DNA of 64,000 bases from Candidatus Entotheonellaceae bacterium (GTDB lineage Bacteria; Tectomicrobia; Entotheonellia; Entotheonellales; Entotheonellaceae). Below, piece after piece: positions 30,306 to 30,872 of this stretch. The stretch covers positions 2,912,001 to 2,976,000 of the forward strand of contig OZ250173.1 of the NCBI GenBank assembly GCA_965238075.1, read 5' to 3'. Made by a program: the position numbers and the translations under genes. Under the pieces are notes generated by a model that was not told the origin of the DNA, ran no database searches, and saw only the letters and a program-made list of their open reading frames with translations. How positions within the stretch are numbered: the stretch's first letter is position 1; each line of letters begins with the position of its first letter.

Positions 30306-30872
30306 ATGACCGAGCGATACATCGACGTGCTGGACCCGCGCGGCATACCCCAGCAGGGGGCGTATGATCTGGCCCGGCGGCCGACAAGCCTGCAGGGGGC
30401 GACTCTCGGCATTCTGAGCAATAGCAAGCCGAACGGCGATTTGCTGTTACAGGCGATTCAGAGCGAATTGGCCGAGCGGTTTCACTTCAACGAGGTGATC
30501 TATCGCCATAAGGGCATCAGTTCCCCGTCCTCCGGCGACGTCATGGCCGACTTGGAGAAATGTCACATCGTTCTGAACGCGGTTGGGGATTGAGGCTCCT
30601 GCACGTCGTGGAGTATCCACGACGCCATTGAGCTGGAAAAGCGCGGGGTGCCGACGGTGACGATTTGCTCCTCCGAATTCGTCACCTTGGGGCGAGCTGA
30701 GGCTGAGGCGCTCGGCATGCCCGCTTTGCCGCTCGCCATTATCAAACACCCGCTTGGCGGCCTGGCGGCTGACGAGGTGCAGCAACGAGCCGCCAGCGTC
30801 TTGAACACCGTCGAGCAGCTATGCACGACCTCGGAACAGCAGTTGGCGGAACAGCAGTTGGCAAGCGTGTAG
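30306..30872 (+). CDS. UGSC-family selenoprotein (188 aa; Sec96 at TGA 30591-30593)
   Basis: ORF 30306-30593 continues in frame through TGA as [27 protein letters not shown] into ORF 30648-30872. A SECIS-like hairpin follows the TGA. Confidence 0.88.
30604..30624 (+). promoter_or_regulatory. Bacterial SECIS-like hairpin (UGSC gene)
   Basis: Perfect 9-bp stem CGTCGTGGA/GTA/TCCACGACG. The apical G lies 20 nt after the TGA. Confidence 0.75.

Follow-up and report, generated by a model that had tools for sequence, protein, structure and literature searches.

A TGA codon in the middle of an otherwise open frame raises two questions at positions 30306 to 30872 of the DNA analysed here, a stretch of 64,000 nt (the window) from the forward strand of contig OZ250173.1 of a Candidatus Entotheonellaceae bacterium (assembly GCA_965238075.1, positions 2,912,001 to 2,976,000): is this codon read as selenocysteine (Sec, U), and what would the resulting protein, a member of the UGSC family, do in the cell? 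The evidence given below favours, with a probability of roughly 0.8, a UGSC-family selenoprotein that serves as the redox subunit of a two-part selenoenzyme, the other part being a protein of 363 amino acids (aa) encoded downstream, which is called the partner throughout. The argument starts from the following features of the window:

30294..30299, plus strand: Shine-Dalgarno-like GAGGAG, 6 nt before the ATG, read directly from the sequence and with a presumed function
30306..30872, plus strand: UGSC-family selenoprotein gene, 188 codons, TAG stop, Sec at codon 96 (PF24696, NF041046)
30591..30593, plus strand: in-frame TGA, almost certainly selenocysteine U96 of D-U-G-S-C, with Cys in homologues at the same column
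30604..30624, plus strand: hairpin resembling a selenocysteine insertion sequence (SECIS), 9 bp, with a conserved 7-bp core (30606-30612 / 30616-30622) and the loop GUA (30613-30615)
30922..32013, plus strand: partner gene, 363 aa, 49 nt downstream of the UGSC gene, with the motifs GWTDGLP...AGC...TTH...

With TGA translated as U, a single frame runs from the ATG at 30306 to the TAG at 30870-30872 and specifies 188 residues with U at position 96, the codons GAT TGA GGC TCC TGC at 30588-30602 giving D-U-G-S-C at residues 95-99. This product was matched by the Pfam model PF24696 (UGSC family; residues 7-173) with 183.1 bits at a cut-off of 25 and by the NCBIfam model NF041046 ('UGSC family (seleno)protein') with 145.8 bits at a cut-off of 125, and both models span the TGA. 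It is thus confirmed that 30306-30872 is a genuine UGSC-family gene; as the family is already contained in Pfam and NCBIfam, the gene itself is no discovery. Read-through to 30872 as a UGSC selenoprotein had been proposed in a first-pass annotation made from the sequence alone, and it is borne out by the two models and the single open frame; the annotation also described a family with Cys homologues and no known biochemistry.

Translation table 11 yields two open reading frames (ORFs) instead, 30306-30593 (95 aa) and 30648-30872 (74 aa), and if the TGA were a true stop, the locus would consist of two small genes of 95 and about 74 aa, of a pseudogene or of an assembly error. Public gene calls split the family likewise, and a near-length search of 5.8 billion proteins returned 8 matches, a small number that results from table-11 gene calling cutting Sec forms in two; the same splitting is why correct annotation of the UGSC gene matters. 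Against a stop, one family model covers both pieces and the Cys homologues are continuous: CGSC was found at the position of U96, with likeness on both sides, in 7 of 7 full-length database homologues. The piece behind the TGA has GTG 30648 as its sole possible start, 19 codons past the TGA, from which a conserved stretch of 18 residues would be lost, in agreement with the earlier statement that this fragment lacks a convincing start of its own.

A cluster-representative profile search recovered 5924 UGSC relatives at E ≤ 1e-3. In an alignment of 98 sequences, which includes 5 Sec forms of the host genome itself, the U-G-S-C columns were occupied by C or U in 94 (column 96), G in 95, S in 81 and C in 91 (column 99) sequences, so that the Cys expected at position 96, with similarity on both sides, is present. 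In motif column, length, SECIS-like hairpin and rarity of Cys forms the window gene is a member of the family and shows no essential difference from it, its particulars being that it is one of five paralogues and that it stands in an operon with genes for a B12-binding protein, MeaB and enoyl-CoA hydratase. One database protein of 117 aa (P0126) is close to the window UGSC protein for about 70 residues and then continues in unrelated sequence; judged from its sequence, it looks like a frameshift in its assembly or a decayed copy.

The host, whose assembly is a single contig of 3.35 Mb with 62% G+C, has the machinery for decoding Sec. A tRNA-Sec was detected with 73.9 bits (gathering score 47) and was also called by ARAGORN as tRNA-SeC with anticodon TCA; selB (357.7 bits) adjoins selA (606.7 bits), selD was found with 318.8 bits, and all three lie above their curated cut-offs. 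The five UGSC genes of this genome carry one in-frame TGA apiece. As TGA also terminates ordinary host genes, among them the UGSC paralogues C and D and the PrdB-like gene of the window described below, the host uses the standard code and recodes TGA only locally; a genome-wide reading of TGA as a sense codon was rejected on the same grounds.

The state of the Sec codon was followed in 41 genomes, comprising the host and 40 relatives. The UGSC family occurred in 18 of them; the 13 further genomes from the host's taxonomic family all had it, with between 3 and 16 matches in each. Exactly one TGA was present in 117 of the 126 matches; 7 matches had no TGA, all being fragments that end before or begin after the Sec position, one had 3 TGA and 1 TAG, and one was a weak fragment with TAG and TAA. 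In a second sample, selected by the partner and described below, TGA stood at the Sec codon in 75 of 75 UGSC copies containing the motif. Neither TAA nor TAG was thus found at the Sec codon among the homologues examined (126 matches in 18 genomes and 75 copies of the second sample), and the homologues do not fall into separate genes divided by such stops, the pattern that had been named as one that would speak against read-through. Since independent assemblies and the five paralogues all retain the TGA, and since hairpin and Sec machinery are present, a true stop is highly improbable, and selenium is almost certainly inserted at codon 96 of the window gene.

Behind the TGA, the sequence CGUCGUGGA-GUA-UCCACGACG can form a perfect 9-bp stem closed by a GUA loop, exactly as the first-pass annotation had described; numbered from the U of UGA, nt 23 and 24 in the loop are G and U. 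According to a review (PMC8659212), the upper stem-loop of the E. coli SECIS comprises nt 15-31 at a distance of 11 nt from the UGA, contains G23 and U24 in its loop and has U17 bulged out. The UGSC element resembles this fdhF-type SECIS in that the hairpin lies within the coding sequence, the upper helix begins 10-12 nt after the UGA and G23/U24 are in the apical loop; it differs in its loop of 3 nt and its fully paired stem of 7-9 bp. All five host paralogues have a hairpin of 6-9 bp at the same place after the TGA with differing stem sequences, and together they amount to an internal covariation test of the SECIS.

Conservation of the helix was analysed in an ungapped alignment of the 45 nt from the TGA on, built from 53 UGSC copies of 17 genomes (47 distinct rows). 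These copies came from 14 loci of the genome searches and from 39 of 40 further stretches, one stretch without the motif and one false second match having been dropped. When columns 14-22 were paired with 26-34, 84.9% of the cells were paired, as compared with 18-50% when the 3' side was slid by 1-3 columns. The percentage paired, the number of cells with both sides changed (23) and the covariation score were each reached in 0 of 500 shuffles; two measures that count pairs or pair types were not above shuffles (217 and 275 of 500). The signal is carried by the 7-bp core (16-22 with 26-32), and the two outer pairs are kept in about half of the rows. Within the core, 45 rows have GC and 2 have AU at pair 18-30; at pair 19-29 there are UA (34 rows) and GU (9), and at pair 21-27 CG (36), GC (10) and GU (1). 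The switch from GC to AU at pair 18-30 leaves the encoded amino acid unchanged in either arm of the stem (TCG>TCA, Ser; CAC>CAT, His), which speaks for selection acting on the RNA. Conservation of G23 and T24 is 90% or more among the 53 copies. From the bacterial SECIS layout claimed earlier, the spacing and G23/U24 are thus retained in these copies.

The second question, concerning the task of the protein, leads to the gene that accompanies it. In the host genome, all five UGSC genes adjoin or are fused to a partner paralogue; the partner precedes UGSC in three of them and follows it in the window copy, and in the fifth both form a single chain. The fused gene and a further, unpaired partner gene lie outside the window:

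C1:189759-191345 (L077 8194-9894), plus strand: UGSC-partner single-chain fusion, 574-codon frame with TGA, adjoining a divergent mandelate-racemase-type gene
C1:533336-534364, plus strand: sixth partner paralogue, no UGSC gene within 3.5 kb on either side

Pairing beyond the host was assessed by a search with the partner only of contigs from one genome per species, of which the best 80 of at least 599 relatives were taken; as this sample was chosen by likeness to the window partner, its figures cannot be taken as the rate of pairing across the UGSC family as a whole. In 75 of the 80 loci a UGSC gene lay on the strand of the partner, and in 4 of the 5 misses the partner lies at the contig edge. 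Among the 76 UGSC genes in these loci, 72 preceded and 4 followed the best-scoring partner match, the distance being 195 nt or less for 74; 10 were in-frame fusions, the other 66 being separate genes. Taxa named in the records of this sample are Tectimicrobiota/Entotheonella (the genus of the window itself, with 96-97% identity), Chloroflexota including SAR202, Binatia, Thermodesulfobacteriota, Beta- and Gammaproteobacteria, Rokubacteria/Methylomirabilota, Acidobacteriota, Dormibacterota and Acidimicrobiales. No recurring third gene was found among the nearest neighbours in the 75 loci, and the conserved unit is the pair of UGSC and partner. A UGSC/'Unknown_1' fusion is reported in the Global Ocean Sampling (GOS) paper (PMC2398784); in the literature covered, this fusion is the only hint of the partner, and GrdB is mentioned nowhere there. 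Gene order and fusions together suggest that UGSC and partner are probably coupled physically and functionally. Two loci, from a Chloroflexi and a Dehalococcoidia metagenome-assembled genome, have two tandem partner paralogues beside one UGSC gene (L102, 1361-2434 and 3001-4044; L133, 3001-4038 and 4136-5134).

The partner was matched by no Pfam or NCBIfam model, and no consistent Pfam match was present among 49 aligned members. Homology to it was found for 7953 of 8000 scored candidates (E ≤ 1e-3), all 'hypothetical' where named. Many database forms of the partner with 430-470 aa carry PF24696 and are therefore taken as fusions that gene callers have cut at the Sec codon. The partner alignment contains 61 invariant columns, including D31-G-L-P34, C82, T110-T111, C180, E183, H194, E196, H220, H258 and H329, and H112 is likewise invariant; this pattern has the appearance of an enzyme. 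The structure model of the partner is confident (pLDDT 91.2, pTM 0.92). With Foldseek, no clear solved relative was found, the best match being class I fumarate hydratase (E 2.8e-4, TM 0.25-0.30), and a wide search with VIA gave a best Z of 5.5 (fumarate hydratase 4.7), below the usual chance best of 7-8. A new fold is not claimed. A search of the ESM Atlas with the partner returned unnamed clusters, one of them auto-named 'Thioredoxin family protein', and was given no weight.

The wealth of invariant Cys, His, Glu and Asp in the partner (C82, H112, C180, E183, H194, E196, H220, H258, H329), together with the weak lead to fumarate hydratase, an iron-sulfur enzyme in its class I form, could also be understood if U96 and C99 bound a metal or cofactor, perhaps jointly with Cys and His of the partner, and did not act as a redox pair; the unit would then be a metallo-enzyme or a metal-handling module. 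Two results speak against this: the structural matches of the partner are within noise, and metal-transport genes did not recur among the neighbours in the 75 loci. A third comes from the relationship to glycine reductase that is treated below.

For the UGSC protein itself, an AlphaFold model was calculated from the 98-sequence alignment (pLDDT 96.2, pTM 0.89). It consists of five beta-alpha units, with U96 placed between strand 88-94 and helix 97-112. Structural matches were generic three-layer alpha/beta domains (Foldseek TM 0.38-0.49; VIA Z 8.7-10.3 over 111-153 residues), namely flavodoxins, azoreductases, receiver domains, TIR domains, short-chain dehydrogenases/reductases (SDRs) and lobes of periplasmic binding proteins. 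When the sequences of solved structures were searched with the UGSC profile, only chance matches turned up, such as designed coiled coils (E 3e-4). Judged by the model, the protein most likely is a single Rossmann/flavodoxin-like alpha/beta domain. It shares its overall fold with flavodoxin, CheY receiver, TIR and SDR domains, but the resemblance is generic, with 6-17% identity and no common cofactor site, and no function is derivable from it.

This model bears on the view that the UGSC protein works by itself as a thioredoxin-type thiol/selenol oxidoreductase, with the neighbouring gene encoding a substrate or an unrelated protein, which is also how the GOS paper reads the family (PMC2398784). 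In the model, a strand leads into the helix that opens with U-x-x-C, an arrangement that thioredoxin-type redox proteins have, and 66 of the 76 UGSC copies are separate genes and not fusions. On the other hand, the model has five beta-alpha units, and no thioredoxin-fold entry was among the matches listed by Foldseek and VIA (best 50 for VIA), which is not proof; moreover, one unnamed family adjoins UGSC in 75 of 80 loci from many phyla, with 10 fusions, which is far beyond expectation for a general redox carrier. A free-standing carrier is thus unlikely. The first-pass annotation had suggested a 188-aa thiol/selenol redox protein: the protein of 188 residues stands, whereas a free-standing role is improbable given the conserved pairing and the Rossmann/flavodoxin-like model.

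A relationship to the selenoprotein B of glycine reductase was also seen. The glycine reductase model TIGR01917 gave a weak match (UGSC residues 93-179 to model positions 343-427, E 4e-4). Its score of 19.4 bits is far below the cut-off of 602.2, TIGR01918 reached 15.6 bits at a cut-off of 65.45 and PF07355 did not match the read-through protein; UGSC fails all GrdB-family models (TIGR01917, TIGR01918, TIGR04483, PF07355) and is therefore not a member of the GrdB family. When profiles were compared with hhalign, residues 76-178 of UGSC aligned to residues 330-430 of GrdB with a probability of 88.9% (E 2.4e-6, 97 columns) and with U on U. In this alignment a 10-residue stretch of UGSC is opposite EIERAGIPVG, and a later H-P-x-G-G is opposite H-x-C-G-D. 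The GrdB side of the comparison was made of 5 sequences only, the GrdB- and PrdB-like genes of the host read through TGA. Three of these are full GrdB-like genes and two are PrdB-like; a single in-frame TGA interrupts each of the five, and one of the GrdB-like genes has the motif U-G-S-C, identical to that of the UGSC family. One of the PrdB-like genes is located in the window:

C1:1388795-1389829, minus strand: GrdB-like gene, one TGA, A-T-U-G-[ST]-[CG]
C1:600365-601402, plus strand: GrdB-like gene, one TGA, same motif pattern
C1:2597518-2598555, minus strand: GrdB-like gene, one TGA, same motif pattern (the three are L078-L080)
35150-36346 of the window, minus strand: PrdB-like gene, likely a selenoprotein gene, 398 codons, Sec codon 35864-35866, ...VVFLTPT-U-PLC-THT..., ends in TGA

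BLASTP of UGSC against the PrdB-like protein of the window gave nothing significant (E 0.049, off-register), so that the link is visible by profile-profile comparison only. A solved relative of the PrdB-like protein was not found by search. The partner is unrelated to GrdB (hhalign probability 0.09%).

From these alignments, the Sec-bearing half of UGSC is best seen as a distant homologue of the Sec region of GrdB, and the protein as its stand-alone relative. The likeness to GrdB/GrdF/GrdH and PrdB comprises the Sec segment, aligned U to U with a flanking strand, a helix and a later H-P-x-G-like motif, and the U-x-x-C arrangement. UGSC differs in lacking the N-terminal two thirds of GrdB, and its neighbours are MeaB and the unnamed 363-aa protein, with no sign in Pfam searches of a pyruvoyl proprotein of the GrdE/PrdA type. 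The Grd and Prd selenoproteins work with a second, substrate-holding protein, as is proposed here for UGSC, and the Sec sites of GrdB and PrdB are described as redox or nucleophilic sites. The latter point is the third that disfavours a metal or cofactor site at U96/C99, and this explanation is rated as still less likely than a free-standing carrier.

The redox subunit of a two-part selenoenzyme could operate as follows. SelB with Sec-tRNA(Sec), directed by the downstream hairpin, would read UGA-96 as selenocysteine. U96, which in the model follows strand 3 directly and opens helix 3, and C99 would then cycle between selenol/thiol and selenenylsulfide. The partner (30922-32013) would carry the substrate site, for which the invariant Cys82 and Cys180 and several His, Glu and Asp residues are candidates. 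By analogy with GrdB and PrdB, the selenol might act as nucleophile or reductant in a reductive step and be re-reduced by a thiol system; that the chemistry is of this Grd/Prd-like kind with thiol-based re-reduction is a rather doubtful suggestion drawn from the analogy. Taken as a whole, UGSC and its neighbour of about 360 aa might constitute an undescribed and very widespread selenoenzyme of two subunits (sometimes one chain), whose Sec domain would have a common ancestry with the glycine and proline reductases, whose second subunit is without a clear match to a solved fold, and which would carry out a reduction step with small carboxylates or compounds of the acyl-CoA type as substrates. 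This wider proposal is put forward tentatively, with somewhat less than an even chance of being right. If it is true, the five copies in the host would be isoenzymes serving separate catabolic operons, that of the window being of the B12-mutase/MeaB/enoyl-CoA hydratase type.

Several points weigh against the two-part selenoenzyme or its single elements. As to Sec insertion, the literature covered contains no experiments showing selenium in any member of the UGSC family. Taken alone, the window hairpin is not significant: the 66-nt fold has z = -1.64, and 14 of 200 shuffles fold as well or better, and its significance derives from conservation across copies and not from single-sequence folding. 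A scan of the window with Rfam at gathering thresholds gave no family at the hairpin and found only a tRNA. The bulged U17 is the element of the bacterial SECIS layout that is absent, as C17 and G31 form a pair in each of the 47 distinct rows. Covarying pairs other than 18-30 also alter amino acids (W/C/G versus I/V/L), so that coupled constraints on the protein could explain part of the covariation. As to the partner, binding is deduced from gene order and fusions, and the unpaired sixth paralogue makes clear that a partner can exist without UGSC. The link to GrdB is a profile-profile match of less than 90% probability that covers the last 100 residues or so and has 5 sequences on the GrdB side. 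As to re-reduction, neither thioredoxin nor thioredoxin reductase genes flank the window copy, and Pyr_redox_2 (2) and DsbA (4) were the counts among the neighbours in the 75 loci.

Publications have described UGSC since 2007-2008 as a selenoprotein family without assigned function (PMC1976440, Olavius symbiont; PMC2398784, GOS), and reviews of 2022 and 2026 list it again (PMC9312934, PMC13188914). The GOS paper counts 255 Sec forms and 21 Cys forms (PMC2398784), and UGSC ranks near the top in abundance among the selenoprotein families of ocean and freshwater metagenomes (PMC2398784, PMC1976440, PMC13188914). No new family is added here, and the interesting part is the function of the two-protein unit: the pairing with the partner and the link to GrdB turn 'unknown function' into a testable reductase proposal. 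The locus is a clean and complete example of the family, with a single-contig assembly, full Sec machinery and a defined partner gene.

In the window, UGSC and partner belong to a probable operon of five genes on the same strand, separated by gaps of 40-60 nt, in the order B12-binding protein, MeaB, UGSC, partner and enoyl-CoA hydratase. The remaining features of this region are:

27452-28717, minus strand: mandelate-racemase-type gene, upstream of the operon, resembling the one that adjoins the UGSC-partner fusion
28755-28783: promoter-like site just upstream of the gene at 28844, consensus match only (1 found, 1.5 expected)
28844..29251, plus strand: B12-binding domain protein, 135 aa, PF02310 with 95.8 bits, first gene of the likely operon
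29292..30245, plus strand: MeaB-type G-protein chaperone, PF03308 with 305.5 bits, 60 nt upstream of the UGSC gene
32061..32861, plus strand: enoyl-CoA hydratase/isomerase, PF00378 with 194.6 bits, 47 nt downstream of the partner gene

The B12-binding protein and MeaB (28844-30245) are encoded without a mutase catalytic subunit beside them. In three near-identical loci (L083-L085), MeaB precedes the pair in all three, and enoyl-CoA hydratase is present among the chosen ORFs in two. The other four host paralogues have different neighbours, namely a TRAP solute-binding protein, ComA with a zinc dehydrogenase, a thiamine pyrophosphate (TPP) enzyme, and a mandelate-racemase-type enzyme. Among the nearest neighbours in the 75 loci, TctC was found with 10 ORFs in 8 loci, DsbA 4 times, Amidohydro_2, SDR and enoyl-CoA hydratase 3 times each and Pyr_redox_2 twice, besides single genes for a CoA-transferase, a thiolase, a CoA-ligase and a thioesterase. 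Such varied surroundings suggest that the pair has been built into several catabolic pathways of small acids or acyl-CoAs.

The PrdB-like gene at 35150-36346 is likely a second selenoprotein gene of the window: the part before the TGA matches PF07355 positions 211-347, and the read-through product scores 158.8 bits with TIGR04483, for which the cut-off is 300. Two genes follow downstream of it on the same strand:

34652-35110, minus strand: ORF of 152 aa without a family
32848-34638, minus strand: fused electron-transfer flavoprotein, beta and alpha parts in one ORF of 596 aa

The fused electron-transfer flavoprotein and the 152-aa ORF may represent the electron supply for the PrdB-like protein.

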